Shown: piece after piece, positions 13 through 18,164 of the stretch | Layout of the letters: each line of letters begins with the position of its first letter | Position numbering within the stretch: the first letter of the stretch is position 1 | Source of the DNA: Nitrospinaceae bacterium | GTDB taxonomy: Bacteria; UBA8248 | Reading direction: 5' to 3' | DNA length: 64,000 nt | Assembly: GCA_018669005.1 (NCBI GenBank) | Contig: JABJAL010000020.1 | Coordinates: 3,117-67,116 of the forward strand | Program-made: the position numbers and the translations under genes | The notes under the pieces: generated by a model | The model's database searches: none | Told to the model about the DNA's origin: nothing | Seen by the model: only the letters and a program-made list of their open reading frames with translations

Positions 13-1668
13 CTATCGCGGTATCACCATCACATCGAGACTGGAGGCATCCCGGCCCTCAAGGACGGTGTTCTCCGCCCGAATAAGCAGGGTGTCATGA
101 AAGTTCCTTCTTTCGGCCGCCGAGGCGCAACTTGAAATCTCAAGCCGCAGCCTGTGGCCCGGCTGAAATACATTGCAGGTAGGAACGAGGCCGATCTCGA
201 ATACTTCCTCGGCTCCCGGTGTAAGGGACTTGGGGTTCGTGTGCGGGTGAAAGGGTCGACCCGGTTTTGAGCGCTCCGCGTCCAGCGCCCGGTGGGAGGC
301 GCGAAGCCAGCCGCTCGTTAAAATTCGAAAATCCCCATCCGGCCCCTCGTCTGCAAACGAGACGAGCCAATCGGTGTCCTCAGCAGAGGAGCGGGCCACA
401 AGCCGGAGCGAGAGCGGACCCGTGATTTCAAGCGGGGCGTCCACGGGCCCCGAGCGATAAACCAACCGAGGTTTGCCATATCGCCAGCCCTCGCCCAGGG
501 GATCGTTTACATAGCTTCGCTCTCCGCCGCCATCAGGAGACTCGGACAGCGTGCCCTCAAGTCCGCCCGCCGGGCCGCCAAGATGGAATCTGCGCCACTG
601 CCCCCGCGCGATGGGCCAGGTATCCTCGCCCCGCCAGCGCTCCTCGCCCTGAATGTAGAGCTGAATGGGCGGGCCCTCCATCACCCCGGTGTCCATGCCT
701 TTGAGCCATTGATCGTACCAGCGCAGTGCCTCCTCGTGGTAGGCGCTGAACGGTCGCCAGGGCCGGGGCCGGGGGCCGACAAGCATCTTCTTGGGGATGT
801 CCCCCACTCCCTCCCAGCCGTCGAACACGCCCGGCAGGTGGAGCCACCAGAAATCCCAGTCGCAGCCGAAATAGGTAGGAATCTTGATTTTATCAAGATC
901 ATAGAAGGGCGAGCGCGTCTTGTAGTAATCGCTGTCCAGCGGGCGCTCGAAACATATGCCCTCGCGGATCATCTTGTTGATGCCCGAGGGATCGGCCACC
1001 CGCTCGCCGCCGAGGTTTAGGTTCGCCACCGAGGAGAACCAGTTCCACATGAACCCGCTATAGGGGATCCCCCCGTGATAATTTCGGTTGCGATAGAGAT
1101 CGGTGAAAGCGTCATAGGGAAAGATCGCTTTGAGCGCATCGGGCTGATGCGTGGCTGCCAGCACCTGAGATTCTGCAAAATACGAGCAGCCCATCATACC
1201 GACCGAACCGTTTGACCAGGGCTGGGCAGCCGCCCATTCAATCAGATCGACATAATCGGCCTGCTCTTTTTCTCCCTTGTCGTCATAGCTTCCCCCGGAA
1301 TCGTTGGTGCCCCGAACGTCCACGATGAGGTGAACATATCCGCGGGGAACCCAGAACTGGGTGATGCCCGCCTCGTTTTGATTGAGCAGCACGTCGGTGA
1401 GCTGAAGCCCTCTCGTGTAGGGCGAGAGCGAAAGCAGAACGGGGAATTTTTGCCCCGAGCTGCGGGGGCGGTAAACGTCCGCCGCAAGATGAACGCCGTC
1501 GCGCATCGGAATGAGCAGGTCCATATCCGAGGTGATGGCATGGCGGGGCTCTGAGCGCTCTCTAACCTTGGGCGGCTCATCATAGGGCCATTGCGGCCAC
1601 GCGGCGGGATGTACCGTGCGGATACGATCAGGATCAACATCGGGCTCAATATTTCGGCTCATCGGCAC
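13..1668 (-). CDS. CocE/NonD family hydrolase (S15 X-Pro dipeptidyl-peptidase-like alpha/beta hydrolase)
   Basis: 551-aa ORF. The nucleophile-elbow motif GCSYFAESQ (G-x-S-x-G-like) and overall similarity pattern match the CocE/NonD family; the C-terminal part resembles a beta-sandwich domain. Confidence 0.8.
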   Translation of the reverse strand: MPMSRNIEPDVDPDRIRTVHPAAWPQWPYDEPPKVRERSEPRHAITSDMDLLIPMRDGVHLAADVYRPRSSGQKFPVLLSLSPYTRGLQLTDVLLNQNEAGITQFWVPRGYVHLIVDVRGTNDSGGSYDDKGEKEQADYVDLIEWAAAQPWSNGSVGMMGCSYFAESQVLAATHQPDALKAIFPYDAFTDLYRNRNYHGGIPYSGFMWNWFSSVANLNLGGERVADPSGINKMIREGICFERPLDSDYYKTRSPFYDLDKIKIPTYFGCDWDFWWLHLPGVFDGWEGVGDIPKKMLVGPRPRPWRPFSAYHEEALRWYDQWLKGMDTGVMEGPPIQLYIQGEERWRGEDTWPIARGQWRRFHLGGPAGGLEGTLSESPDGGGERSYVNDPLGEGWRYGKPRLVYRSGPVDAPLEITGPLSLRLVARSSAEDTDWLVSFADEGPDGDFRILTSGWLRASHRALDAERSKPGRPFHPHTNPKSLTPGAEEVFEIGLVPTCNVFQPGHRLRLEISSCASAAERRNFHDTLLIRAENTVLEGRDASSLDVMVIPR

Positions 1669-1707
1669 AGACCTCCCATTTGCCTAAATAAATCAGCATG
1701 CACCCTG

Positions 1708-2022
1708 CTAATTCATCTCCATCATTTGAGAAACACGCATTGTCCCGCCATTTTCCAAAAACGGATCTGATTTAGCTATTTCAATGGCAGCTTCAATGCT
1801 TTCTGCCTTAACAACCGCAAATCCTTTCATCGAATTTGGATCGTTATCATCTTCAACACTCCTTGATGTTACAATTTTTGAAACTGGCAGCGGTGTACCT
1901 GGATTAACGATAGTTTCACCAAGACCTGCTACCCATGCTTTCCATTTTTCCATTTGGGCCATGCCCTCTTCTTGTGAGCTTGGCTGGCTTCCTCCGTGAT
2001 AAGCAATCATGAAATTTGGCAT
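1708..2022 (-). CDS. YciI-like (YCII-related) small protein
   Basis: 104 aa, with the typical YciI fold signature (ferredoxin-like, ~100 aa, sequence resembling 'MFMIAYHGG...AESIEAAIEIAKSDPF'). Confidence 0.65.
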   Translation of the reverse strand: MPNFMIAYHGGSQPSSQEEGMAQMEKWKAWVAGLGETIVNPGTPLPVSKIVTSRSVEDDNDPNSMKGFAVVKAESIEAAIEIAKSDPFLENGGTMRVSQMMEMN

Positions 2023-2071
2023 CTTTCCTCCATTTTTTTAACATGGTTAATCCGGCGCTTAATTCGCCGTC

Positions 2072-3088
2072 CTACTCCCCCTCCCGGACCTTGGGCAGCA
2101 CGTCCTCGGCCAGAATATGCATCGTGTCGAGCACCAGGCTCTGCGGCATGCCCGGCCACTGAATGCTCATGATGAGATGATTCACGCCAAGCCCTTTAGA
2201 CAGCGACAAAATCTGCTCGGCCACCTCGTCCGGCGAGCCCAGCACGAAGCGGTCGCGGAGAAGCTCGTCGAATTCGAGACCGAGATTGTTGTCCCCCTCG
2301 GGCATAGCCTTGTCCTGGCCCCATTGGTGATAGGACTTGTATTTGATTTCGAGATAGGGCCGACAGATGCGAATGGCCTCCTCGCGCGAGGCAGCGACGA
2401 ATACCTCCCGGCGCATGGGAAGCTCCTCGGGAAACGGCTTGCCGAGTTCATCGAGCGCCTGCTTGTAGACGTCCATCTGCCGGAAGGTCGTGTCGAGACG
2501 ATTGTGCGGGTTGATGTACCAGCAGTCACCCAATTGGGCGGCGCGGCGAATGCCTGGGTCGCTGTTCGCACCAATCCATATCGGAGGGTGGGGCTTTTGA
2601 TGCGGCTTCAATGGGCACGAGGCCTCTAGCAACTCGAAATGAGACGCCTTCATCGATACTTTTTCCTCGGTCCAGAGCCGCTTGATGGCCTCTAAATTTT
2701 CGATAAAGCGCTGGACACGCTCGCCCTGCGTGCTCCCGAAGGCCCGGAACTCGACCTCGCGGTAGCCAAGGCCCGCCCCGAAAATAACCCTTCCTCCCGA
2801 CATCACATCCATCGAGGCGAGTTGTTCAGCCAAGTCGAGTGGCTTGTGGAGCGAGAGAAGGACGATCCCCGCGTTGAGGCGCACATTTGGTGCCTCGGCA
2901 GAAACACGGGTCAGAAAGGGGAGTTGCTGGAAATCCTGAAGCGGGTAGGCGCTGTAGTGCGAGCCCTTGGTGATTGAGGCATAACCCAATTTATCGGCAA
3001 CGCGCGCCTGCTCCATCAACTCCATAAAGCGCGCGCCCATGTCTTCACCCTGCTCGAACTGGCCGCGCAACATGAGACCAAATTCCAT
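2072..3088 (-). CDS. LLM class flavin-dependent oxidoreductase (luciferase-like monooxygenase)
   Basis: The ORF 2072..3154 was trimmed to the MEFGLMLRG start. It is a TIM-barrel luciferase-like family protein of ~338 aa. Confidence 0.8.
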   Translation of the reverse strand: MEFGLMLRGQFEQGEDMGARFMELMEQARVADKLGYASITKGSHYSAYPLQDFQQLPFLTRVSAEAPNVRLNAGIVLLSLHKPLDLAEQLASMDVMSGGRVIFGAGLGYREVEFRAFGSTQGERVQRFIENLEAIKRLWTEEKVSMKASHFELLEASCPLKPHQKPHPPIWIGANSDPGIRRAAQLGDCWYINPHNRLDTTFRQMDVYKQALDELGKPFPEELPMRREVFVAASREEAIRICRPYLEIKYKSYHQWGQDKAMPEGDNNLGLEFDELLRDRFVLGSPDEVAEQILSLSKGLGVNHLIMSIQWPGMPQSLVLDTMHILAEDVLPKVREGE

Positions 3089-3324
3089 AGCCCGCCTCCC
3101 TTCGCTGGGCGGGCCCGAAGATGTCCACCCTGGGCTTCCGCCTAAAATCCGCAACCCACATGAATCATTTTGAATGTAGCCATACTACAGGAAACCTCGG
3201 CATCCGCGCCATGCGGCGAGAGGAAGCAATGAGTGCGAATTGGCGTCAATCCCGCATGCAACCAGCAATATTTTTTGTACCAGAGTCGATGCGAGAAAGG
3301 GGGTGACCAGCAGAGAAAGGGGAG

Positions 3325-5193
3325 CTATTTCACTTCGATTTTCACAACGTGGGTCGAGAAATCACTGAATATTTCACGCCAGGTAAGTTTCTTCTTTGGT
3401 TCATTTTTAGCGATAATCTTGGACATAAGATGGGCCTTGCCGAGGGCGGTAGAGGCGGCGGATATTATCGAACCAAAATACACGTGTTTCGATTTCGGGC
3501 CATTTCGCCTGTTTCGTGAAATGCCAATGAGATGGCCAAAATCATCGATAATGGGCCCCCCGCCACTCGGCCCTTCGATGGGCGCAGTGACAGTGAAGCT
3601 AGATGCCATCATGTCGAGTCCGCTAATGGATGCGATGTCACCCGAGAGGATGCTGACCTTCGTCTCCACGGGAAACCCGATGGCGTGGACCCGCATGCCG
3701 GGTCGGGCCTTGGTGTCGGGATCTATGTGAAATCCCTTTTTTTCAGGGCCAAATTTCTCAAGCATCACTATGGCAATGTTGTTTTTCTGATCGCTCGCAA
3801 CAATTTCGCCTGAGAATGATTTCCCGCTGGGATAAATAGCGCGTATGTTCTTTGCCCCTATCACGAAATTCAGATTCGTCATTATGTGCGCCGTGCCTCC
3901 GAGATAGTATCCCAAGCCAGCAAAGCGCCATCCCGCCATTGTAGAAACATGTTCCCCCGCCCCTTTTTTGAGGGTGCCTAACCCTTCAACCGACTTTTTA
4001 TGGATCCACCCAATTTCTTTGCCACTCTCGGACACCTGAAGCCAGCCCCCGGGAATTGTGCCAACCACATGAATATTCTCACCCAGAGTACTGCGTTTTA
4101 GAGCACGGCCCGATTTTTCGGGTATGTCATATATTGCCGCCTCTTCAACAACACGATAGTCCTTATCTTCTTTTCGAATTTTTCCAAAAAGGGATTTCAT
4201 TCTGTCTGCTTGAATTTTTCGCGAGATGATGCGGGATATCTCAATATGATTACGTTTTAGAGCAACGATGAGAGCCGTTTCGCCAAATACGTTTTTGCTG
4301 AACAAATTGGCACCTGCGGCGACAAGCGCCTTGACGATTTCGATGGACTCCTTTTTATTGTGGTCAAGCCAATCGGAAACGGCAACGAGTAGAGCCGTGT
4401 CTCCGTCAAATTTTTTCGCATTCACATCGGCGCCCGCCCGGATGAGGGCCAGCGTTATCTCGGCGCGCCTTTGAGCAACCGCTCGAAGGAGCGGCGTGTC
4501 TTCGTTTTCGGTTTTCGCATTCAAATCGGCCCCGGCCTCAACCTGGGCGTTTACCGCTTTAATGTTATTATTATGAATTGCCAAAAAGAGAGGTGTATTA
4601 CCGGATGCGTCCCGCGTGCCCAGGTCCGCCCCCGCCTTGATGAGCATCTGCATGATCAATTGGTTCTTGCCTGTAATTGCCCGGCTCAGGGCGGTAGCGC
4701 CGCTCTTGCCCTTTGCATTGATATCAGCCCCGCCGTCTATCAATGTTTTCGCCATTTCGACATTGCCCTCCTGGACAACGCGAATAAGAGCCGTGTGGCC
4801 CTCTTCATTTCTGATGTTTAAGTCGGCACCTGCTTTTATCAGGAGGTTGGCAATTTCGCTGTCATCGTTTCGAACCGCCCAAATCAGAGCGGTGTCCCCA
4901 AGATCGGTTTTTTGATTGAGGTCGGCATTAGCTTTGATGAGTGCTTTAACAATTGAAGCATGTTTTTTATGCGCCGCCCAGATTAAAGGGGTAAAGTTGT
5001 CCTTGTCTTTTACATTCAAATCCGCCCCGGCCTGAATAAGAATATTAACGGCCTGAAGTTTGCCCCCCTGGGCGGCATCTATCAGGACGGATCTGGCGCT
5101 TCCACCACACCCGGCGACGAGACCGCAAATGAGAAATAAGCAAACAAAAAGCACAGAGGTTCGTTGCTTGCGAAATGAAACTAATGTTCTCAT
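3325..5193 (-). CDS. Lipoprotein with N-terminal ankyrin-repeat array and C-terminal trypsin-like (S1C/DegP-like) peptidase domain
   Basis: The signal peptide and lipobox are FLICGLVAGC. At least 8 ankyrin repeats match the consensus (TPLIWAA..G..ivkaLIkaGADLN). The C-terminus has a GTAHIM...GPSGGGPII serine-protease signature. An RBS AGGAG lies 5 nt upstream of the second ATG (5193). GC is ~45 %. Confidence 0.7.
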   Translation of the reverse strand: MRTLVSFRKQRTSVLFVCLFLICGLVAGCGGSARSVLIDAAQGGKLQAVNILIQAGADLNVKDKDNFTPLIWAAHKKHASIVKALIKANADLNQKTDLGDTALIWAVRNDDSEIANLLIKAGADLNIRNEEGHTALIRVVQEGNVEMAKTLIDGGADINAKGKSGATALSRAITGKNQLIMQMLIKAGADLGTRDASGNTPLFLAIHNNNIKAVNAQVEAGADLNAKTENEDTPLLRAVAQRRAEITLALIRAGADVNAKKFDGDTALLVAVSDWLDHNKKESIEIVKALVAAGANLFSKNVFGETALIVALKRNHIEISRIISRKIQADRMKSLFGKIRKEDKDYRVVEEAAIYDIPEKSGRALKRSTLGENIHVVGTIPGGWLQVSESGKEIGWIHKKSVEGLGTLKKGAGEHVSTMAGWRFAGLGYYLGGTAHIMTNLNFVIGAKNIRAIYPSGKSFSGEIVASDQKNNIAIVMLEKFGPEKKGFHIDPDTKARPGMRVHAIGFPVETKVSILSGDIASISGLDMMASSFTVTAPIEGPSGGGPIIDDFGHLIGISRNRRNGPKSKHVYFGSIISAASTALGKAHLMSKIIAKNEPKKKLTWREIFSDFSTHVVKIEVK

Positions 5194-5480
5194 TTGTTCT
5201 CCTTTCATAAGAAAATAAATATATCATCGGATAAAAGAGATGCCCACTCCATCAGGATGACCTCTCGCTCTCAGGATAGGCGGGGAAAAGGCAAATCCAA
5301 ATAAATTTCAATCACCAAGACTCTGGAAATTCGAGTTTACAGGATGTAACTTTAAGAAAGGCGATCTATAATTTGCCATAGGCAGTTTTTCCGGGTGCCC
5401 TCCCCATCTGCCAAATTATTCGATATGGGCCGCCATCCTGGGGAAAAAGTAAAAAGGAGCATTTCGTGCATATACAAAAA

Positions 5481-5936
5481 ATGAAATGGTGGATGATTCT
5501 ATTAGGCGCAATCATCGTCGGCAGCATCACCTTTTTGGGGAGTCCGTCAAATTCCACGGGCAATGAGATTACAGTTTACAAGAGCCCAACGTGAGGATGC
5601 TGTTCGGGGTGGGTGGGTCACCTACAATCAAAAGGCTTCAAAGTCACGACAAACAACGTTTCCAATAAACAGCTCAGAGTCCTCAAACAGGAGCTTGGGG
5701 TCCCCTCTCGACTGCAATCATGCCACACCGGGATGATCGGCAAATACATTATCGAGGGACATGTGCCGGGCGATGTCATTCTCAAATTCTTGAAGGAAAA
5801 ACCCGAGTTCGCTGGCCTTGGGGTGCCCGGCATGCCGCCCGGCTCGCCGGGGATGGGGAGCAAAGGCCGGCCCTATACCGTATTCAGTTTTGATAAAATT
5901 GGCGGTGTTAAGCCCTACCAGCAGATAAATCCCTAG
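5481..5936 (+). CDS. copG: CopG/DUF411 copper-binding protein with in-frame TGA (candidate selenocysteine) at 5592..5594
   Basis: ATG 5481 (alternative GTG 5466 with AGGAGC 5 nt upstream) is in frame through TGA 5592-5594 with the ORF 5613..5936. The translation MKWWMILLGAIIVGSITFLGS...ITVYKSPT-U-GCCSGWVGHL...SCHTG...EGHVP...GVPGMPPGSPGM matches DUF411/CopG. The conserved columns are VYKSPTCGCCxxW, SCHT, EGHVP and PGMPxGSPGM. The TGA sits on Cys1 of CxCC. Confidence 0.55.
5592..5594 (+). other. In-frame UGA codon, putative Sec codon of CopG
   Basis: It is in frame with the upstream ATG/GTG and the downstream ORF, and its position equals the first Cys of the CopG CxCC motif. Confidence 0.5.
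5609..5625 (+). other. Candidate bacterial SECIS hairpin (7-bp stem, apical GGU/GGGUC loop) starting 15 nt after UGA
   Basis: GUGGGUG-GGU-CACCUAC forms the pairs G5609-C5625, U-A, G-U, G-C, G-C, U-A and G-C. The apical loop contains G and U 22-24 nt downstream of the UGA. Confidence 0.4.
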
Positions 5937-5946
5937 TGACGGGCCC

Positions 5947-7180: not shown

Positions 7181-7528
7181 GTGCAACTCTCCTCCAATAA
7201 TTGATTGCCTCGCCCTCATCGCCCATTTGCGGCGAGACATCACACCGGCGGCTATTACCATAACAAGCGTAAAGCGGATTCATTTGCATAAAATCTGCAC
7301 AAACTCCTTGAAGGTGGCACCGAAACCACCATATATCATTGAATATATATTAATTACGTCTTTATATTATTTTTTCATAAAGATGCGCAGCCAGGGGCGA
7401 AAAAGGGGGGCATGGCCTATAATCACCCCATCATTCGTTCAAACATTTTTTAAAATTTTCGGGGTCTTCAGATGGTACATATCTCAAAAAACGTCCAGAG
7501 CGTTGCCGGCGGCGAGCGGGCCAAATAT

Positions 7529-8617
7529 ATGACCACGCACCGCCCACCCGACATGGTCCGCCTCGAATCGGGCACACCTAACTTCCCCACCCCGCCGCAC
7601 ATCAATGAGGCGGCCAAGCAAGCTCTCGACGACGGCTTCACCTTCTACGCCCCCGGCTACGGGGACCCCGAGTTCCTCAAATCCGTCTGCGAGAAAATGT
7701 ACGCAGAGACGGGAGCGGAATACACGCCTAAAGATGTATTCGCCACCAACGGCGCAAGCTCAGGGATTTACACCGTAATGACAGCCTTCCTCGACCCGGG
7801 GGATGAGGCCATCTTCATGGACCCGACCTTCTCGCTTTATCTTCACGTTGTTCGCCAGCTCGGGGCCAAGCCCGTCCTCGTGCCCCACAACGCCGAATAC
7901 CAGCTCGATGTCGAGGCCGTGCGCGCCGCCATAACGGATAGAACGCGCCTCGTGCTCATCTGCAACCCGAACAACCCGACCGGCGTCGTCTACAAAAGAG
8001 AAGACCTTGCCGCTCTCGTCGAGCTATGCGCCGAAAAGGATATTCTCCTTGTATCGGATGAGGCCTATGAGAAAATCCTTCAGCCGGGCTACGAGCATGT
8101 GCCCCTTCTCTCGTTCACCGAGCACAAGGAGCGCCTCATCCTCCTCAATACGCTCTCGAAAACCTACTCGATGACCGGCTGGCGGGTGGGCTACATCGTC
8201 ACGCCGCCGGAGCTCACCTCGCTTCTTTTCGGCATCCATCGCTCGATCAACGGACCAATCTGCTCATTCGGCCAGCGCGCCGGGGCCGCCGCCCTCCGGG
8301 GCTCGCAGCAGTGCGTCGCCGACATGGCCACCGAATACTTCAAGCGCGGCAGCCTCATGCACAAAATGGCGCTGGATATCCCGGGCATGATCCCCGTCAC
8401 CCCACAGGGCGGTTTTTATCTTTGGGTGCGCTATGAATTCCCCCTCACCTCAAAAGAGGTGGCCCAGCTCGTCTGGGATGCGAACGTCGCCCTGCGAAGC
8501 GGCTCGGAATTTGGCGCCACAGGCGAGAACCATCTTCGCTTCACCTACTCGGTGGACGAGTCCACTATCGAGGAAGGGATGCGCATAGTCGGCGAAGTGT
8601 TCAAACAGCTGGGCTGA
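7529..8617 (+). CDS. Class I/II pyridoxal-phosphate-dependent aminotransferase (aspartate-aminotransferase-like)
   Basis: The conserved PLP-lysine region is SKTYSMTGWRVGY, with N-terminal substrate-binding motifs. The start is probably MTTHRPP. Confidence 0.8.
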   Translation: MTTHRPPDMVRLESGTPNFPTPPHINEAAKQALDDGFTFYAPGYGDPEFLKSVCEKMYAETGAEYTPKDVFATNGASSGIYTVMTAFLDPGDEAIFMDPTFSLYLHVVRQLGAKPVLVPHNAEYQLDVEAVRAAITDRTRLVLICNPNNPTGVVYKREDLAALVELCAEKDILLVSDEAYEKILQPGYEHVPLLSFTEHKERLILLNTLSKTYSMTGWRVGYIVTPPELTSLLFGIHRSINGPICSFGQRAGAAALRGSQQCVADMATEYFKRGSLMHKMALDIPGMIPVTPQGGFYLWVRYEFPLTSKEVAQLVWDANVALRSGSEFGATGENHLRFTYSVDESTIEEGMRIVGEVFKQLG

Positions 8618-8640
8618 CGATTAGCTTTACGGAGGAATCC

Positions 8641-10011
8641 ATGCCAAAACCGACCGCCCCATCGAGCCTCGAGAACAGTTACATCGAGGCGCTTCCCGCC
8701 TCCCAGGCGCTATTTGAACGCGCACAAAAGATATTCCCGGACGGCGTCACCCACGACAGCCGGCGAATGAAACCCTTTCCAATCTATGTCGAGCGGGCCG
8801 AGGGGGCCCTCAAGTGGGATGCCGACGGCAACCGCTACATAGATTATTGGATGGGCCACGGAGCGTTGCTGTTCGGCCAGAATCCGCCGCATGTTCGGGA
8901 CGCCGTACGCGATCAGGCCATGCGGGGCACCCACTACGGCGCCTGCCATGAAAAAGAGGTCGAGTGGGGCGAGTGGGTCTGCCGGTTGGTTCCCTGCGCC
9001 GAGCGGGTGCGCTTCACGGCCTCGGGCACCGAGGCCACCCACATGGCGCTGCGCCTCGCGCGAGCCTTCACCGGAAAATCGCGAGCCGTGAAATTCGCGG
9101 GCCACTTTCACGGCTGGCACGAGGGCCTTGAGATCGGGGTGCGCGCGCCCTACACGGCAGAGCCCGAGGCGGGCCAACTCTCAGGGGTGGTGGACGAGGT
9201 TACGGTATGTCCGCTGGACGATATCGGGGCCGTGCGCGGGGCCCTGTCGGGCAATGACGTTGCCGCTGTCATTCTAGAGCCCACGGGGCCGCATTTTGGG
9301 ACGGTGCCGGTTTCAAAAGAATACCTAGAGGCGCTTCGAGAGGAGACGACGAAAGCCGGGGCGGTTTTGATCTTCGATGAGGTGGTCACGGGCTTCCGAG
9401 TCGCCCCCGGCGGGGCGCAGGAATTTTATGGCGTCGTGCCCGACCTTTCGAGCTTTGCGAAAATTCTCGCGGGGGGACTTCCCGGCGGCTGCGTCGCAGG
9501 CCGGGCGGATATCATGCGCCACCTCGAAACAAAAGAAACACCTGAGGAGACGCACGCGACGAAAATCCCCCACCACGGCACTTTTAACGCCAATCCCCTC
9601 TCGGCCGCCGCCGGTGTGGCCATGCTCGCATCCATCGCCGATGGCTCGGCAATTCGCACCGCCAACGAGGCCGCCGCCGCCCTGCGGCGCGGGATGAACG
9701 AAATTCTCGCGCAGGAAAAAATCGCCTGGAAGGTGTACGGGGAGCACAGCGACTGGAAATTTTTCTTTGGCGCCGACGCGCCGCCCAAGGGCGGGGATGA
9801 TCAGTCCGTCGCCGATGTTCCCTGGGAAAAACTAAACGCCAAGTTCCCCGAGAAAAGCCGCACGCTCCGACAGGCCTTCATCCTTCACGGGATCGATTTT
9901 AATGGCGACCGCGCCCTCACCGGCACCGTCCACACACAGGGCATCGTCGAGGAGACGCTGGCCTGTTTTGCCGAGTCAGCGCGAATGCTGAAAAAGGAAG
10001 GTCTTGCTTAA
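8641..10011 (+). CDS. Class III aminotransferase, glutamate-1-semialdehyde 2,1-aminomutase-like
   Basis: The motifs DGNRYIDYWMGHG, FTASGTEA and IFDEVVTGFR are typical of the GSA-aminomutase/ornithine aminotransferase family. It is paralogous to 19840..21192. Confidence 0.8.
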   Translation: MPKPTAPSSLENSYIEALPASQALFERAQKIFPDGVTHDSRRMKPFPIYVERAEGALKWDADGNRYIDYWMGHGALLFGQNPPHVRDAVRDQAMRGTHYGACHEKEVEWGEWVCRLVPCAERVRFTASGTEATHMALRLARAFTGKSRAVKFAGHFHGWHEGLEIGVRAPYTAEPEAGQLSGVVDEVTVCPLDDIGAVRGALSGNDVAAVILEPTGPHFGTVPVSKEYLEALREETTKAGAVLIFDEVVTGFRVAPGGAQEFYGVVPDLSSFAKILAGGLPGGCVAGRADIMRHLETKETPEETHATKIPHHGTFNANPLSAAAGVAMLASIADGSAIRTANEAAAALRRGMNEILAQEKIAWKVYGEHSDWKFFFGADAPPKGGDDQSVADVPWEKLNAKFPEKSRTLRQAFILHGIDFNGDRALTGTVHTQGIVEETLACFAESARMLKKEGLA

Positions 10012-10785
10012 GTGAGCCCAATTCCTGAAAACTTTAAAAAGCTACATCAAGGGGAGGAATTTCTTAGAACGAAGACCTATGAAGCGATTGAAGCAGACGA
10101 AGACTTATCAAGACATGTAGCTGTCACTGAAAGAATCATGGATTTCTTAAACGTTTTATCGGCAAAACCTCCTTCCAAAGAAGATGAAGATACAAAGGCC
10201 GTCCGACTTCTCGGAATGCGTTTGTTTAACGGCTGCGCGGCTGCACTTCAACTCATCGTAACCGGCTACTACCAAAACGCAGCGATGATAATGCGGGATC
10301 TACTTGAGACAGTATTCTTACTGGGATTTTTGGGCCTTGACCGCACTAAAATTTCGGAATGGCGAACTGCTGACGATGCCACCCGAAAAAAAGTATTTGC
10401 TCCAATTAAAATTCGCACTGCACTCGATGAAAATGACGGCTTTACTGGAAAAAAACGCGCCGAAGCCTACAATATCCTTAGCGAACTCGCCTCTCATCCG
10501 ACTTACAAAGGATTTCGGATGCTTGCTCCTAAGGGATCGGAGCATCACTGTGGGCCGTTCTTCGATTTTTCCGTTTTAAAACCCCTGATCGAGCAATTGG
10601 CGAGCCTAGCCGTTCAGGCCGGGGCAAATATCAATCCTTTAATTGAGGATGAGACGAAAGAAATCGCGATGGCTAGCGTCGATTGCATAGAAGTCTCCGG
10701 GGAATGGTTCGAGCGCTACTTTGAGGTTCCTTTCGACCGAAAAAAAATTAAGGAAATGAAGGCACTGCTTAATCAGCGGGAATAA
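10012..10785 (+). CDS. Hypothetical protein, low-GC orphan gene
   Basis: 257 aa with no recognisable motif. The GTG start overlaps the stop of the upstream aminotransferase (TAAGTGAGC). GC is ~45 % against ~65 % for both neighbours. Confidence 0.5.
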   Translation: MSPIPENFKKLHQGEEFLRTKTYEAIEADEDLSRHVAVTERIMDFLNVLSAKPPSKEDEDTKAVRLLGMRLFNGCAAALQLIVTGYYQNAAMIMRDLLETVFLLGFLGLDRTKISEWRTADDATRKKVFAPIKIRTALDENDGFTGKKRAEAYNILSELASHPTYKGFRMLAPKGSEHHCGPFFDFSVLKPLIEQLASLAVQAGANINPLIEDETKEIAMASVDCIEVSGEWFERYFEVPFDRKKIKEMKALLNQRE

Positions 10786-13499: not shown

Positions 13500-13895
13500 A
13501 TTAAATCTCCTTCCATTTACAAACAGCCGCCTATGCCCAGATATTTAACAAATCCTTAGATTCAAATGATACCTTTCCTCGAAAGTTCGAAAAGAATTTA
13601 TAATGATAATTAACAAGAAACCAAACAAAAATATTAAATATATTTTTATCTTAATTTCAAATCTCACCCGCTTTCATTATTTTAATTTTTTGTGATTTCG
13701 ATCTCTTGATACTCCTCTTCTAAGTCGTTAAAGTTTCAAGGGAAAACTTAGCTATTTAAAGTATTTAAGTAAAAATGACGAAACATTATAGAGAATTTAA
13801 TTTCAATTCTAATATATTCATTAGGGTACATTATTGGGATAACCCATTAATACATACCTCGCCATGATGTGGGGCCTCACCTGAGATAGAGAGGA
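13500..13895. promoter_or_regulatory. ~400-bp AT-rich (approx. 28 % GC) upstream region of the giant repeat-protein gene
   Basis: There is a sharp compositional drop relative to flanking genes and no ORF. It is likely a promoter/UP-element or xenogeneic-silencing target region. Confidence 0.5.
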
Positions 13896-16800
13896 ATGCA
13901 TAGCCGCCGAATCACAAGAAAACTCACAGGTTTTTTAGTATGTAGCATTTTGGCGCTTGGTGTATCGAATGCCAACGCGGCCAACAATGCTGCGGACTTA
14001 GCGATGGAGCTGGCCAAGGCGCTCAAAGTGTCGGCGGCCAATGCCCCAGCTGCGCTTAAAGCACTACAGGGACGAGGCATCATACCTGTCGAGGTTTTTT
14101 CAGGCGATCCGGTTACCTCCAACGTGGCGCAGACAATCGCCACTGGTCTAATTAAATCAGGCATCAAACCCCCGGAGGCGGCAAAAACGCTAGCCGCCGC
14201 CGCCGCTGCCGCATCAGTCCCCCTCCAGGATGCGGTGCAGGGTGCCGTCAAGGCCGCCATTGCTGCGGGGGCCGATGTCGCCGCCGTGACAAAGGCTGCC
14301 TCCGAGGGTGCCGTCAAGGGCTCAACGGCCCAGGTCTCAGGCCCTATGACCAAGGGCAGATATATCAAACGAAACTTTCTCAACAAGGACACGCGCTCTG
14401 ACGCCGCCGCCGCCTACGTTCCCAAGGGCAAGGCAAATTTTGAAGCTGTGGTGGCGGAAATTGCAGCCAAGGGAGAGAATAGCTTTGCTGGCAGCAAGGC
14501 CTCAGATCCCCTCACACGCGCCGACTTCCTGACCTTGAGATACCTTCAGGTAGGCGGCAAACCGGGCGCGGTCATCGGCGATAAAAAACGCCTCCTCAAG
14601 AAAAAAGGACTCATCGCCTCCGAGGACATCGGACAGGTCAAATCATTCCAGGGCGATGCTACCCTCACGCACCCCGGCTCAGAAAAATCAATCAAGATCA
14701 CGGGCAACGAGGCGATTCTCTATAAGGATGTAGGAGAAACTGAGCTCGACGCACGAATCGAACTGCTCTTCGACGATGGCAGCACACTCACCATCAGTGA
14801 GGACACAGCGCTCACCATCGACGAAATGATCTACAATCCGAAGACCAAATACCGCTCGATCAAGCTGCGAGTGAAGTCGGGAACAATTCACGTTAAGACG
14901 GCGAAGAACAGCAACCCGAAATCGAAATTCTCAATTGTCACACCGACCGTCGTTGCCGGACTCCGGGGAACAGACGTTTACATGAACGTCACCCCCACCG
15001 GCGCATCACGGGTCACTTCGAACACAGGCGCGAACGCGGGTAACGTTGTCATGCGAGCCGCCACCGTTTCCGACCGACCGCCACCAGCGACGACGCCAAC
15101 CCCTGGCACACCCCCGCTTGCAGCCACCCCGGCCCAGGCGCCGCCAGGGGTCACGGTCACCCCCGGCAACGGCTCCAGCGCCGCACCCGGCGCGACAACC
15201 GCCTCGCCCCCCGCGCCGCCCACCCCGGCGCAGAATCAGGCCGACGCCGCCGCGACAACCATTACAAATCCCGGCACGCCTCAGGCCGTATCGGTGGCAG
15301 GTGATGCCGCCGGGTCTGCTGCGCTAGCCGCAGCGAGCGGTGCCGTGCAGGCCGCCCAGGCGGCAGGCGTGAACGTTGGTCCTGTCGCTAATGCCGCTGC
15401 CCAAGGTGCGATGACAGGCGCGCAAGCCGCTGGCGCGGGTGGTGCCGCCGGTATCATCGCCAACGCATCCGCGAACGGCGCGGTCTCCGGCGCGCAAGTC
15501 TCAGGCGCCAACGTGGCAGCCGCCGCTAACGCCTCATCTCAAGGCTCGATTCAGGGCGCCCAAGCAGTAGGTGCGAACGCCAACGCCGCAGCCGCGGGCG
15601 CAAGCAACGGGGCCGTCCTCGGCGCACAGTCCTCCGGCGCCAACATGGCCGCCGTCGCCAACGCTTCCGCGCAGGGCGCGATGCAGGCGGCGCAATCCTC
15701 GGGCGCGAATTTGGCCGCCATCGCCAATGCCTCCGCGCAGGGCGCGATGCAGGGCGCCGAGGTCTCGGGCGCCAACGCAAGTGCCGTCGCGAATGCTGCG
15801 GCCCAGGGCTCGATGCAGGCCGCCGTCGCAGGTGGCTCGAACGTGGCAGCCATCGCCAACGCTACGGCGCAGGGCGTCGTTGCAGCGGCACAGGCCATGG
15901 GCGGCAACGCCGGAGCCATGTCACAAGCCGCATCAAGCGGCGCCATCGCGGCTGCCCAGGCAGCAGGCGCAAATGTAACCGTAATCGCCACCGCCGTCGC
16001 TTCAGGCGCCGTGGCATCCGCACAATTAAATAACGCCAACGTCGGGGCGATCGCCCAGGCGGCATCGTCAGGCGCGATGCAGGCCGCCTCACAGTTCGCT
16101 CCAGGCGCTCCTGGTGCCCCCGCGGGTGCGGCTAGCTTCGCGAGTGCTATCGCGAATGCGATGGCACAGGGTGCAATGGCCGGAGCGCAGGCAGGGGGCG
16201 CCAACATCGGCGCCGTCGCGCATGGAACCTCCGCCGGCAGCATCGCTGGTGCCCAAGCGGGCGGCATGGACGTTGGCAGCATCGCCCAGGCGATGTCCCA
16301 GGGCCTGACCCAGGGGGCCGGCGCGGCTAACGCTGGCGTCGTGGCTCAGGCCGCATTGACGGGGGCCGTGCAGGCCGCCGCCGCATCCGGCGCGAACGTG
16401 AACGCAATCGCCGCAGCGACATCGACCGGCTCCGTTCAGGCCGCCGCCGCTGCGGGAATCAACATTTCGGTAATAGTTCAGGCGTCATCGGCGGGCGTGG
16501 TATCGGGTGCCGCCTCCATCCAGCAGGCGCAGGCCCAGGGTCAGTCCCTTGCCGGGCTGTTTAGCGGCTCCACCGGAGCGGCTGGCGAACTCGGTGCCTC
16601 CGGTGCCCCCAATGTACCCGGTGCCCCCGGCGTACCCGGCGGACCGGGCGGTCCTCCCACGGCATTTACAATCAACACCACCGCCATCGCACAAGCAGCG
16701 ACTGGCGCAATGGTCCAGGCAATGATGCAGGCAGGACCAGGAGGTCCTGGTGGTCAAGGTGGACCAACGAATATAGCCGCTATCGTTCAAGCCGCCGCAC

Positions 16801-18164
16801 AGGGCGCGGCATCTGCGGCGGCATTTGCCGCAGCCGCAGGAGGCGGTCCGGGCGGTCCCGGTGGACCTGGCGGGCCGGGTAGTCCGGGCGGGCCGGGTGG
16901 ATTTGACGTTGCCTCGTTTGCCCAATCTATCGCCCAGGCGGGTGCTCAGGCATTTCAAGCAGGACCCGGCGGGCCGGGTGGTCCCGGCGGGCCAGTAAAT
17001 ATAGACATCGCCGCTATCACGAGTTCAGTAACCACTCAGACACAGGCGTTCGTCGCACAGGCCCAGGCGGCCGGTGCCTTCAGCGGTCCTGGTGGACCGG
17101 TTCCGGGTGGATTCGCCGGCCCACCACCACCAGGCACTAGCTTTGCCGGCCTTCCGGGAGATCCGGGCGGCGCTCCCGGCGAAGGCGGTGATCCCGGCGC
17201 CTTTATCGCACCTCCTCCTGGTGGCTTCGTCGGCCCTGCTCCCGACGGCTCGACATTTGTTCCGCTCGATTCCCTAGCGACGGACACCACCCTCATCAAT
17301 TTGATCATAGAGGGCGCCACTGCCGAGGAAATCGCTGCAAGCATCATCTCTGGGTCAGTAGGCGATAGCACACTCACCACCACTGTTCAGACAACTACGG
17401 TGGAGGCAGAAGAACCGCCGGTGATTCTCAGGGACTCCCTCGATCGGCAGATCGTGGGTGTTCTCCTCTCAACGGCGCCGGACGGCACCACCGCCGAGAT
17501 GTTCACCTATATATTCGTCAAGGACAGCAACGGGATTAGCACGGTAGATGTCAAAGTGACGGTGCCAAATTCCAACATTCCTATCCCTATTTTCCAAACC
17601 TTCCAGGCATTGGTTTTCCCGGAGGAGACATTTAAATTAGGCTCCCTCATGTCCGAAGACGTGCGGAAGGAGTTTTTCGAAAAAGATCTCACCAGTTCCC
17701 TGCTGGGAACGATTCCGACAACGGGCATTACCGGCACCTATAAATTTGAGGTCTTCGAGCCGAACACGTCCACCCCGAGCATTACGAGGACTGTGCTCTT
17801 CTCGGGCGTCGCGGCACTACTTCCGAATCCTTCGGCGCCGACCGTCTCGGGTTCGGGCACCACACCCACCATCATCGGCACCGCGCTGACATCGAGCCAG
17901 CTCACGGCCGTCGGAGCCTCGGCGGCGTACTACCAAATCATCGCCGAGAACATTACTACCGGAGCTATCGAGTTTATTTTCGACGGTGTGTCTGGACCCA
18001 CCATGGCAACCGCCACTCAGCTACAGTCCGGCATCCAGGTTCCCAGCGGTTTACTCATTAGCAGCAATAGCTACCGTTTCGCGGTCCTTGCATTTGATGC
18101 ATCAACTCTTTTGGGCGCAACAAGAACTTCCGAAAGCGCTGAAGCAAGCGCATTTACACCCTAA
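13896..18164 (+). CDS. Giant secreted protein (1422 aa): signal peptide, FecR domain, Pro/Thr linker, Ala-rich 11/22-residue repeat array, Gly/Pro-rich segments, Thr-rich C-terminal domain
   Basis: The signal peptide is FLVCSILALGVSNANA. The FecR-type segment is SIVTPTVVAGLRGTDVYMNV. There are about 18 tandem 22-aa units (GANxAAxANASAQGAMQxAQxS) and GPGGPGG runs. Confidence 0.8.
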   Translation: MHSRRITRKLTGFLVCSILALGVSNANAANNAADLAMELAKALKVSAANAPAALKALQGRGIIPVEVFSGDPVTSNVAQTIATGLIKSGIKPPEAAKTLAAAAAAASVPLQDAVQGAVKAAIAAGADVAAVTKAASEGAVKGSTAQVSGPMTKGRYIKRNFLNKDTRSDAAAAYVPKGKANFEAVVAEIAAKGENSFAGSKASDPLTRADFLTLRYLQVGGKPGAVIGDKKRLLKKKGLIASEDIGQVKSFQGDATLTHPGSEKSIKITGNEAILYKDVGETELDARIELLFDDGSTLTISEDTALTIDEMIYNPKTKYRSIKLRVKSGTIHVKTAKNSNPKSKFSIVTPTVVAGLRGTDVYMNVTPTGASRVTSNTGANAGNVVMRAATVSDRPPPATTPTPGTPPLAATPAQAPPGVTVTPGNGSSAAPGATTASPPAPPTPAQNQADAAATTITNPGTPQAVSVAGDAAGSAALAAASGAVQAAQAAGVNVGPVANAAAQGAMTGAQAAGAGGAAGIIANASANGAVSGAQVSGANVAAAANASSQGSIQGAQAVGANANAAAAGASNGAVLGAQSSGANMAAVANASAQGAMQAAQSSGANLAAIANASAQGAMQGAEVSGANASAVANAAAQGSMQAAVAGGSNVAAIANATAQGVVAAAQAMGGNAGAMSQAASSGAIAAAQAAGANVTVIATAVASGAVASAQLNNANVGAIAQAASSGAMQAASQFAPGAPGAPAGAASFASAIANAMAQGAMAGAQAGGANIGAVAHGTSAGSIAGAQAGGMDVGSIAQAMSQGLTQGAGAANAGVVAQAALTGAVQAAAASGANVNAIAAATSTGSVQAAAAAGINISVIVQASSAGVVSGAASIQQAQAQGQSLAGLFSGSTGAAGELGASGAPNVPGAPGVPGGPGGPPTAFTINTTAIAQAATGAMVQAMMQAGPGGPGGQGGPTNIAAIVQAAAQGAASAAAFAAAAGGGPGGPGGPGGPGSPGGPGGFDVASFAQSIAQAGAQAFQAGPGGPGGPGGPVNIDIAAITSSVTTQTQAFVAQAQAAGAFSGPGGPVPGGFAGPPPPGTSFAGLPGDPGGAPGEGGDPGAFIAPPPGGFVGPAPDGSTFVPLDSLATDTTLINLIIEGATAEEIAASIISGSVGDSTLTTTVQTTTVEAEEPPVILRDSLDRQIVGVLLSTAPDGTTAEMFTYIFVKDSNGISTVDVKVTVPNSNIPIPIFQTFQALVFPEETFKLGSLMSEDVRKEFFEKDLTSSLLGTIPTTGITGTYKFEVFEPNTSTPSITRTVLFSGVAALLPNPSAPTVSGSGTTPTIIGTALTSSQLTAVGASAAYYQIIAENITTGAIEFIFDGVSGPTMATATQLQSGIQVPSGLLISSNSYRFAVLAFDASTLLGATRTSESAEASAFTP
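15300..16530 (+). repeat. Tandem 66-bp (22-codon, internally 2x11) coding repeat array inside the giant gene
   Basis: The nucleotide unit gccaacgcctccgcgcagggcgcgatgcaggc... is visibly repeated. The protein units consist almost only of A, G, S, N, Q, M, V and I. Confidence 0.75.

Follow-up and report, generated by a model that had tools for sequence, protein, structure and literature searches.

The stretch of DNA considered here, below called the window, comprises 64,000 nucleotides (64 kb) of a contig from a Nitrospinaceae bacterium (JABJAL010000020.1, assembly GCA_018669005.1), and carries on its minus strand a complete gene at positions 3325..5193 (open reading frame list, coordinates checked), which encodes 622 amino acids plus a stop codon. 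The predicted product combines a lipoprotein signal, an array of ankyrin repeats, a bacterial SH3-like domain and a domain with the fold of the HtrA-type (S1C) serine proteases, from which the catalytic residues have been lost. The order of these elements had been proposed in a preliminary description of the window and was borne out. The reading frame is intact, its longest version spanning 3325..5208 with an alternative ATG at 5208; the start at 5193 is favoured because a Shine-Dalgarno sequence, AAAGGAG, can be read at 5199..5205 on the minus strand, separated from this ATG by a 5-nt spacer, and because the public gene calls use the 622-residue form. Residues are numbered from the ATG at 5193. 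In the NCBI database the protein is labelled 'hypothetical protein HOJ95_02070 [Nitrospinaceae bacterium]'. Independent assemblies (NCBI metagenome-assembled genomes (MAGs), ENA, Logan) yield the identical 622-residue protein on 15 public contigs, which rules out an assembly error, and nucleotide identity to the window gene is complete in all six public copies compared. The content of guanine plus cytosine (GC) of the gene, put at about 45% in the preliminary description, was measured as 49.7%, with 54% at third codon positions (GC3), compared to 58-63% and 70-77%, respectively, in the flanks.

The protease-like domain occupies residues 419-565 (3499..3939, minus strand) and was recognized by Trypsin_2, by a family hidden Markov model (HMM), by AlphaFold2 and by Foldseek. 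Trypsin_2 matched residues 432-563 with 44.6 bits against a cut-off of 27.6, and the family HMM, made without the window sequence, scored the protein with 196 bits; sequence matches to Deg1 and HhoA reached E 3.5e-7. The domain scans that had been proposed as a check therefore came out positive for both the ankyrin (E 1e-48) and the protease-like part. The AlphaFold2 model of the domain and of the tail that follows it has a predicted local distance difference test (pLDDT) of ~90-97, and Foldseek superimposed the domain on the protease domains of DegS, HtrA1 and DegQ with a template modelling (TM) score of ~0.70 and a root mean square deviation of ~2.6 Å over ~170 residues, at a probability of 1.00. 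In the alignments with solved HtrA structures, the segment TNLNF is paired with TNxHV, the motif of the catalytic histidine, and NNIAIV with D(V/L)A(V/L), that of the catalytic aspartate. The fold on which membership in the S1C family (HtrA/DegP) depends is thus present, whereas the His-Asp-Ser triad is absent.

Asn442 (3868..3870, minus strand) takes the position of the catalytic histidine (TNLNF versus TNxHV in the family), which is histidine in 100% of the aligned relatives, and Asn472 (3778..3780, minus strand) takes that of the catalytic aspartate (KNNIAIV versus xNDxAxx), a residue that is still present in the one ortholog described below. In the nucleophile loop, the family HMM aligns INeGNSGGP with IEGPSGGGP without gaps, such that Pro542-Ser543-Gly544 (3562..3570, minus strand; supported by column counts) replace Gly-Asn-Ser, the oxyanion-hole glycine becoming Pro542, the asparagine Ser543 and the nucleophilic serine Gly544. 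The sequence GPSGGGPII, first taken for the nucleophile motif, is hence not an intact GNSGGP. The histidine of GTAHIM, first taken for that of the peptidase, is His436, a conserved but non-catalytic residue which active relatives possess alongside the true catalytic histidine (GTxHIMTNLHVV). All 29 aligned relatives (22-45% identity) have His, Asp and Ser at the three positions, as do 263 of the 281 domain matches found in 269 retrieved proteins, whereas the window protein has N442, N472 and G544. Seventeen columns are invariant in the relatives, and the window protein departs from them at four only, H442N, D472N, G542P and S544G; the invariant structural Gly, Pro and Phe are all retained. A degenerate triad combined with a residue other than glycine at the oxyanion hole (chymotrypsin position 193), the combination by which the S1C pseudoproteases of the MamO type are defined, is found here as well. 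At the level of sequence, the region consequently presents itself as a pseudoprotease, the very outcome that the preliminary description had named as speaking against its own reading. In MEROPS terms the protein would be classed as a non-peptidase homologue and not as a peptidase; with His, Asp, Ser and the oxyanion-hole Gly all replaced, it is not expected to be able to work as a serine protease.

The N-terminus, MRTLVSFRKQRTSVLFVCLFLICGLVAGC, matches the lipoprotein signal pattern, and signal peptide and lipobox together take up residues 1-29 (5107..5193, minus strand; pattern test). The pattern applied, modelled on PROSITE PS51257, was [LVI][ASTVI][GAS]C with the cysteine within residues 15-35 and a basic n-region. 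Basic residues (R2, R8, K9 and R11) mark the n-region, followed by a hydrophobic core, the sequence L-V-A-G-C29 at the end of the lipobox LFLICGLVAGC, and glycine at position +2. Glycine in this position, next to the lipid-modified cysteine, is compatible with sorting to the outer membrane under the rule established for E. coli. The protein is accordingly predicted to be exported by the Sec/Lsp route, to be lipidated at Cys29 and to reside in the cell envelope. The lipobox LVAGC had been recognized in the preliminary description, and the failure to predict a signal peptide, which would have counted against it, did not occur.

Nine ankyrin repeats follow at residues 36-335 (4189..5088, minus strand), as judged from Pfam, from PDB matches and from the repeat register; repeat 8 carries a 7-residue insertion and repeat 9 forms the C-terminal cap. 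Eight stretches were matched by Pfam Ank with E 1e-48, and Ank_2 gave E 1.1e-48 (164 bits against a cut-off of 27.3), in line with an earlier count of eight or more; the array belongs to the ankyrin-repeat proteins (PF00023/PF12796), and PDB ankyrin and DARPin structures were matched down to E 1e-99. In the AlphaFold2 model the array appears as paired helices with low pLDDT, a consequence of the lack of alignment depth in this region. The segment next to it, residues 338-405 (3979..4182, minus strand) with the motif IPGGWLQVSESGKEIGWIH, is assigned to a bacterial SH3-like domain on the basis of SH3_3 family matches and of the model. Taken by itself, the window segment scored 17.9-22.5 bits with SH3_3 (PF08239; Pfam match at residues 365-407), below the gathering cut-off of 27, so that the SH3-like middle segment of the preliminary description remains sub-threshold in the protein proper. 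It was supported by the family, in which 6/6 segments matched SH3_3 (best E 4.7e-7, the window's own at 22.5 bits), and by the full-length model, in which residues 340-404 fold as an all-beta domain with pLDDT 91-94. The segment is common to five relatives, with the motif (L/I)PxGW(L/M/F)QV...G(E/K)x(I/F)GW(I/V)H, and the same module precedes active proteases in P0038, P0047 and P0051.

The relatives were obtained with HMMER, by searching 1.84 billion representative proteins exhaustively; the matches of the subfamily run from residue 420 to 622, that is, to the C-terminus. A word-indexed search with the C-terminal 297 residues had returned two matches only, and the family was recovered by the exhaustive search; a profile search with alignment A1 was dominated by ordinary DegP from Caulobacteraceae, and no census of architectures was taken from it. 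The matches reach the last residue and thereby define a subfamily-specific C-terminal tail, residues 566-622 (3328..3498, minus strand), which ends in the strand VVKIEV. This tail of 57 residues is conserved in the active relatives (consensus ...IFxExSPxVVLIE), where it replaces the PDZ domains of classical HtrA proteins; it is modelled by AlphaFold2 as helices plus a terminal strand with pLDDT 72-96, and no PDZ family of Pfam matched the window protein at E up to 1. In the active relatives, the protease domain is preceded by TPR, Sel1, MORN, HEAT or PDZ modules and, in some of them, by the same SH3 module; lipoprotein-like N-termini occur in some as well. The ground plan of the family is a variable recognition module, the S1C domain, with or without a preceding SH3 domain, and the conserved tail. 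Within this plan, the combination of ankyrin repeats with the protease-like module was encountered in only two cases among the 1.84 billion representative proteins, namely the window protein and a decayed ortholog, which agrees with the earlier statement that fusions of ankyrin and protease domains are rare and answers the database check proposed along with it. The window protein is also the only close family member whose sole protease domain is dead. It is a catalytically dead, ankyrin-bearing offshoot of an active protease family, and the architecture of an ankyrin/SH3/lipoprotein pseudoprotease is unique and limited to one Nitrospinaceae lineage. Its closest active relative (P0004) sits on a 963-bp contig and hence has no gene context. 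In six further proteins (P0042, P0055, P0064, P0075, P0087, P0096), two or more protease domains occur together, one degenerate (for example LRA, TGV, VNV, QDA or HNA) and one with intact H-D-S, and the loss of catalysis after duplication seems to be recurrent in this S1C subfamily.

The only ortholog found (L001; JGI 3300009706, Ga0115002_10006219, positions 683..2254) lies among the same neighbours as the window gene and is a pseudogene. It has accumulated ten disabling lesions, namely four stops and six indels that shift the frame, one of them a deletion of 299 nt that takes out three ankyrin repeats, and its lipobox is broken, whereas that of the window protein is intact. Read in the original frame, the catalytic regions are GGTAHIMTNLRLL, KNDIAIVML and GRSVGGT, with arginine at the histidine site, the aspartate retained, and the same displaced serine with a residue other than serine at the nucleophile position. 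Since L001 lacks both the histidine and the nucleophilic serine, these two were probably lost in the common ancestor of both lineages; the aspartate, which L001 keeps, would have been lost later, on the branch leading to the window. Fragments of this pseudogene have been reported as proteins (P0001 with 232 residues, probably also P0123 with 106 residues, MTNLRLLK...), an example of how pseudogene fragments come to populate protein databases. The pairwise synonymous divergence (dS) between the window gene and L001 is 0.72, close to the 0.61 of the flanking monooxygenase gene, which is what vertical inheritance at this place would produce. The ratio of nonsynonymous to synonymous divergence (dN/dS, omega) for the same pair is 0.32 over the whole gene, 0.22 in the ankyrin array, 0.26 in the SH3 region, 0.47 in the protease-like domain and 0.37 in the C-terminal tail, with 0.07-0.12 in the flanking genes. 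Constraint on the window gene is thus relaxed but clearly present. Furthermore, the window copy has 0 lesions in 1,869 nt against the 10 of L001, a distribution for which decay at equal rates in both copies gives P ~0.5^10 = ~0.001 (our own calculation). Because of this asymmetry and of the omega of 0.32, the window copy appears to be maintained as a non-catalytic protein.

The gene stands in a variable slot between a gene for a VTT-domain protein and one for a luciferase-like monooxygenase (3089..5946 in the window, 7340..10000 in the locus L011 and 7390..10000 in the locus L018). Flanking synteny is kept in two Nitrospinota relatives, with aminotransferases, the VTT-domain gene, a slot of ~2.6 kb and the monooxygenase. 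The slot of L011 contains an isochorismatase-like gene and an EamA-like transporter, that of L018 a disulfide oxidoreductase and a PEP-mutase-like gene. A homolog of either half of the window protein was found in none of the 79 related loci that had been collected by means of the neighbouring monooxygenase, and a scan of GTDB genomes with the C-terminal module gave no match. The GC3 of 54% against 70-77% in the flanks and the differing slot contents make the gene look like lineage-specific cargo in a variable site. Upstream of the gene, a weakly indicated promoter-like site (TGGGCA, 17-nt spacer, TATATT, extended -10 TG) may be placed at 5218..5246 on the minus strand; in a promoter and terminator scan around the gene, the number of sites did not exceed the expectation from shuffled sequence.

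Taken together, the protein is probably a non-catalytic lipoprotein of the envelope, a binder or scaffold that joins ankyrin repeats, an SH3 domain and a dead S1C fold. Following export by Sec and Lsp, it would be tethered as a lipoprotein in the envelope of a marine diderm Nitrospinaceae bacterium, where the ankyrin groove, the SH3 domain and the silent HtrA cleft with its tail could each offer a surface for binding. Comparable to other S1C pseudoproteases, it might serve to retain a client or to regulate an active protease; a binding or scaffold role for envelope proteins or peptides is the most likely function. It descends from an active protease family with variable N-terminal repeats, and lost His and Ser first and Asp later. 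Several points weigh against this reading. The arrangement of the domains relative to each other is not settled by the full-length AlphaFold2 model (predicted TM score, pTM, 0.41), and export and lipidation are predicted from a sequence pattern. The dN/dS values come from a single pair of genes that includes a pseudogene, and the public copies are identical in nucleotide sequence and yield no population-level dN/dS; the omega of 0.47 in the protease-like domain is well above the 0.07-0.12 of the flanking genes, so that constraint is weak. The function of the gene is dispensable, as the sister lineage discarded the gene and the slot holds other cargo; other Nitrospinota carry unrelated genes in this place. 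Finally, neither a second ankyrin gene nor another member of the family, including an active paralog, is encoded in the 64-kb window.

These points lead directly to the question of whether the gene is a mere relic, acquired in the variable slot, deprived of its catalytic function and drifting to a pseudogene, with a stop or a frameshift not yet acquired. Such a course is rather unlikely. It would account for the decay of the sole ortholog by indels and stops, for the GC and GC3 below those of the flanks, for the different genes in the slots of L011 and L018, for an omega 3-5 times that of the flanking genes, and for promoter and terminator signals that do not rise above chance. It is difficult to reconcile, however, with a copy free of lesions where ten have accumulated in the ortholog, an imbalance hardly expected under equal neutral decay, and with omega values of 0.22-0.47, which remain clearly under 1 despite the comparison being made with a pseudogene. 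Drift would not be expected to spare every invariant structural residue and to remove only the catalytic ones, nor to preserve a good Shine-Dalgarno sequence and the lipobox that is broken in L001. By contrast, an active but non-canonical serine protease directed by the ankyrin repeats, with Ser543 as nucleophile and His436 or another residue as base, can hardly be entertained. Ser543 does adjoin the canonical nucleophile position, and G-x-S-G-G would be restored if one deletion and one insertion were allowed in the alignment (APIE-GPSGGGP versus APINEGNSGG-P); fold and glycine-rich loop are both kept, and active relatives with N-terminal repeats exist. Yet HMMER prefers the ungapped loop with proline at the position of the oxyanion-hole glycine, and a residue other than glycine there is a hallmark of pseudoproteases, as described for MamO (PMC4794232). 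Even if the gapped alignment placed Ser543 correctly, a charge-relay mechanism appears to be excluded because the general base and the aspartate are both unambiguously Asn, in an ungapped stretch (GLGYYLGGTAHIMTNLNFV versus GSGFxLxGTxHIxTNxHVV). A rescue of catalysis by His436 or Ser543 was considered and rejected on the same grounds, as His436 occurs beside the true catalytic histidine in active relatives and is therefore no substitute for it. The targeted active protease envisaged in the preliminary description fails with the replacement of His, Asp and Ser by Asn, Asn and Gly and of the oxyanion Gly by Pro.

The same description had considered a host protein as target, and in a related proposal the protein, with its eukaryote-like ankyrin repeats, would be exposed on the surface and act on a eukaryotic partner, such as a protist that grazes on bacteria or an animal host, its dead protease serving as adhesin or decoy. 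Arrays of ankyrin repeats are indeed typical of host-interacting bacteria, the gene is accessory and of atypical composition, and the glycine at +2 is compatible with a location in the outer membrane; papers that name both ankyrin and taxa beginning with Nitrospin- are, by title and abstract, mostly sponge or coral microbiome studies. The closest relatives by the flanking gene, on the other hand, are water-column Nitrospinota MAGs whose names suggest samples from oxygen-deficient zones or deep water and not host tissue, the neighbours are metabolic and show no secretion-system or effector context, and the signal peptide points to the bacterium's own envelope, in which ankyrin proteins exported by Sec can remain periplasmic, as does RARP-1. 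A eukaryotic target is consequently very unlikely. Closer to the favoured binder or scaffold is a special form of it, an envelope 'substrate trap', in which a specific envelope protein would be caught by the ankyrin groove together with the SH3 domain while its unfolded tail lies in the silent HtrA cleft, the client being either shielded from, or handed to, an active HtrA paralog; in this specific form the proposal is quite unlikely. More speculative still is a role in the handling of metalloproteins, which may be considered in view of the divergently oriented gene for a CopG-like copper protein with a possible selenocysteine.

The reading as binder or scaffold is supported by precedents for each of its elements, MamO, RsgI9 and RARP-1. 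MamO is a pseudoprotease of the HtrA family; it binds metal and activates MamE (PMC4794232). With MamO and the inactive MamE duplicates, the window protein shares a bacterial envelope location (predicted in its case), an HtrA-type fold, a degenerate triad, a residue other than glycine at the oxyanion hole and a presumed non-catalytic role. In contrast to it, MamO belongs to another clade and is encoded in the magnetosome island beside active MamE; a di-His metal site and a TauE-like membrane domain are among its features, whereas the window protein has the ankyrin array, the SH3 domain and the lipid anchor, has all three triad residues replaced, and is without an active partner in the 64-kb window. 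It may thus be regarded as an analogue of MamO, not as a member of the MamO clade. Nearest by descent are the S1C (Trypsin_2) proteins of its own, uncharacterised subfamily (P0004-P0037, P0038, P0047 and P0051, from metagenomes), to which it is 29-45% identical over the protease domain and the tail ending in ...VVxIE, and of which P0008, P0038 and P0047 show, by eye, a cysteine after a hydrophobic leader as in the window protein. All of these differ in their intact His-Asp-Ser, and none has ankyrin repeats. The classical HtrA proteins (DegP, DegQ, DegS, HtrA1; MEROPS S1C) share the fold of the protease domain, but the window protein has neither PDZ domain nor catalytic triad, and a different C-terminal extension.

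An S1C fold employed for ligand binding outside the cytoplasm is known from RsgI9 of Clostridium thermocellum, whose S1C protease-like domain is able to bind cellulose (PMC12203970). Its structure (PDB 7sjy) was among the structural matches retrieved by Foldseek, at 20% identity. The kinship is one of fold only, since RsgI9 is a Gram-positive anti-sigma factor with a paired NTF2 domain and without ankyrin repeats or SH3 domain. Ankyrin proteins are likewise found in the periplasm of bacteria, AnkB of Pseudomonas being one of them. For RARP-1 of Rickettsia, action in the bacterial periplasm has been described (bioRxiv 10.1101/2022.02.23.481736). Both are exported by Sec, stay in the envelope and have bacterial partners, not host partners, as assumed for the window protein; they differ in that they lack a protease-like or SH3 module and stem from unrelated lineages.

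The gene provides a clean example of a bacterial HtrA-family pseudoprotease outside the magnetotactic bacteria, with an order of events that can be reconstructed: His and Ser were lost first and Asp later, whereupon the sister lineage dropped the gene and the lineage of the window kept it under purifying selection. The match to Trypsin_2 invites annotation as an active protease even though the catalytic machinery is gone, and caution is advised in such cases. A substrate trap, if true, would represent a novel type of holdase or protease regulator in the periplasm of nitrite-oxidising bacteria, one in which the loss of an active site together with the gain of a new recognition module, the ankyrin array, would have produced a new binding protein of the envelope. 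The practical impact is limited, as the organism is uncultured and the gene accessory and confined to one lineage.

As to the surroundings, the ankyrin gene lies head-to-head with a DUF411/CopG-like gene, which confirms the adjacency to a divergent CopG candidate noted at the outset. In this neighbour (5481..5936, plus strand), which encodes a signal peptide, a TGA in frame (5592-5594) occupies the place of the first cysteine of the family's CxCC motif (VYKSPT*GCCSGW); public calls shorten the gene to 107 residues with a start at 5613, and the TGA possibly encodes selenocysteine. For the adjacent luciferase-like monooxygenase, the best matches (84-87%) come from marine Nitrospinota MAGs, some of whose isolate names (ODZ, ETNP, OC6_4000m) suggest an origin in oxygen-deficient zones or deep water. 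Across marine Nitrospinota, the slot between the VTT-domain gene and the monooxygenase holds three unrelated gene sets in three lineages, at a similar total length of ~2.6-2.9 kb. A part in anti-phage defence was considered for the ankyrin gene and rejected, because PADLOC gave only domain-level matches to ankyrin and protease domains, the neighbours are metabolic, and the signal peptide points to a location outside the cytoplasm. No tRNA or Rfam features were detected across the 64-kb window. Low GC is met elsewhere in the window (55.5% overall), in a YCII-like gene at 1708..2022 (minus strand, 42%) and in an open reading frame of 257 residues at 10012..10785 (plus strand, 45.5%), so that the mosaic composition of the region is not confined to the ankyrin gene. 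Downstream of the monooxygenase, tandem paralogs of the Peptidase_S15/PepX_C type (X-Pro dipeptidyl-peptidase-like) occupy 13..1668 (minus strand) and continue past the edge of the window, with counterparts in the locus L002 at 13532..16870, and a single copy stands in the matching place of L001; the S15 dS of 1.99 is unreliable as a calibrator, as it compares tandem paralogs in the window lineage with this one copy.

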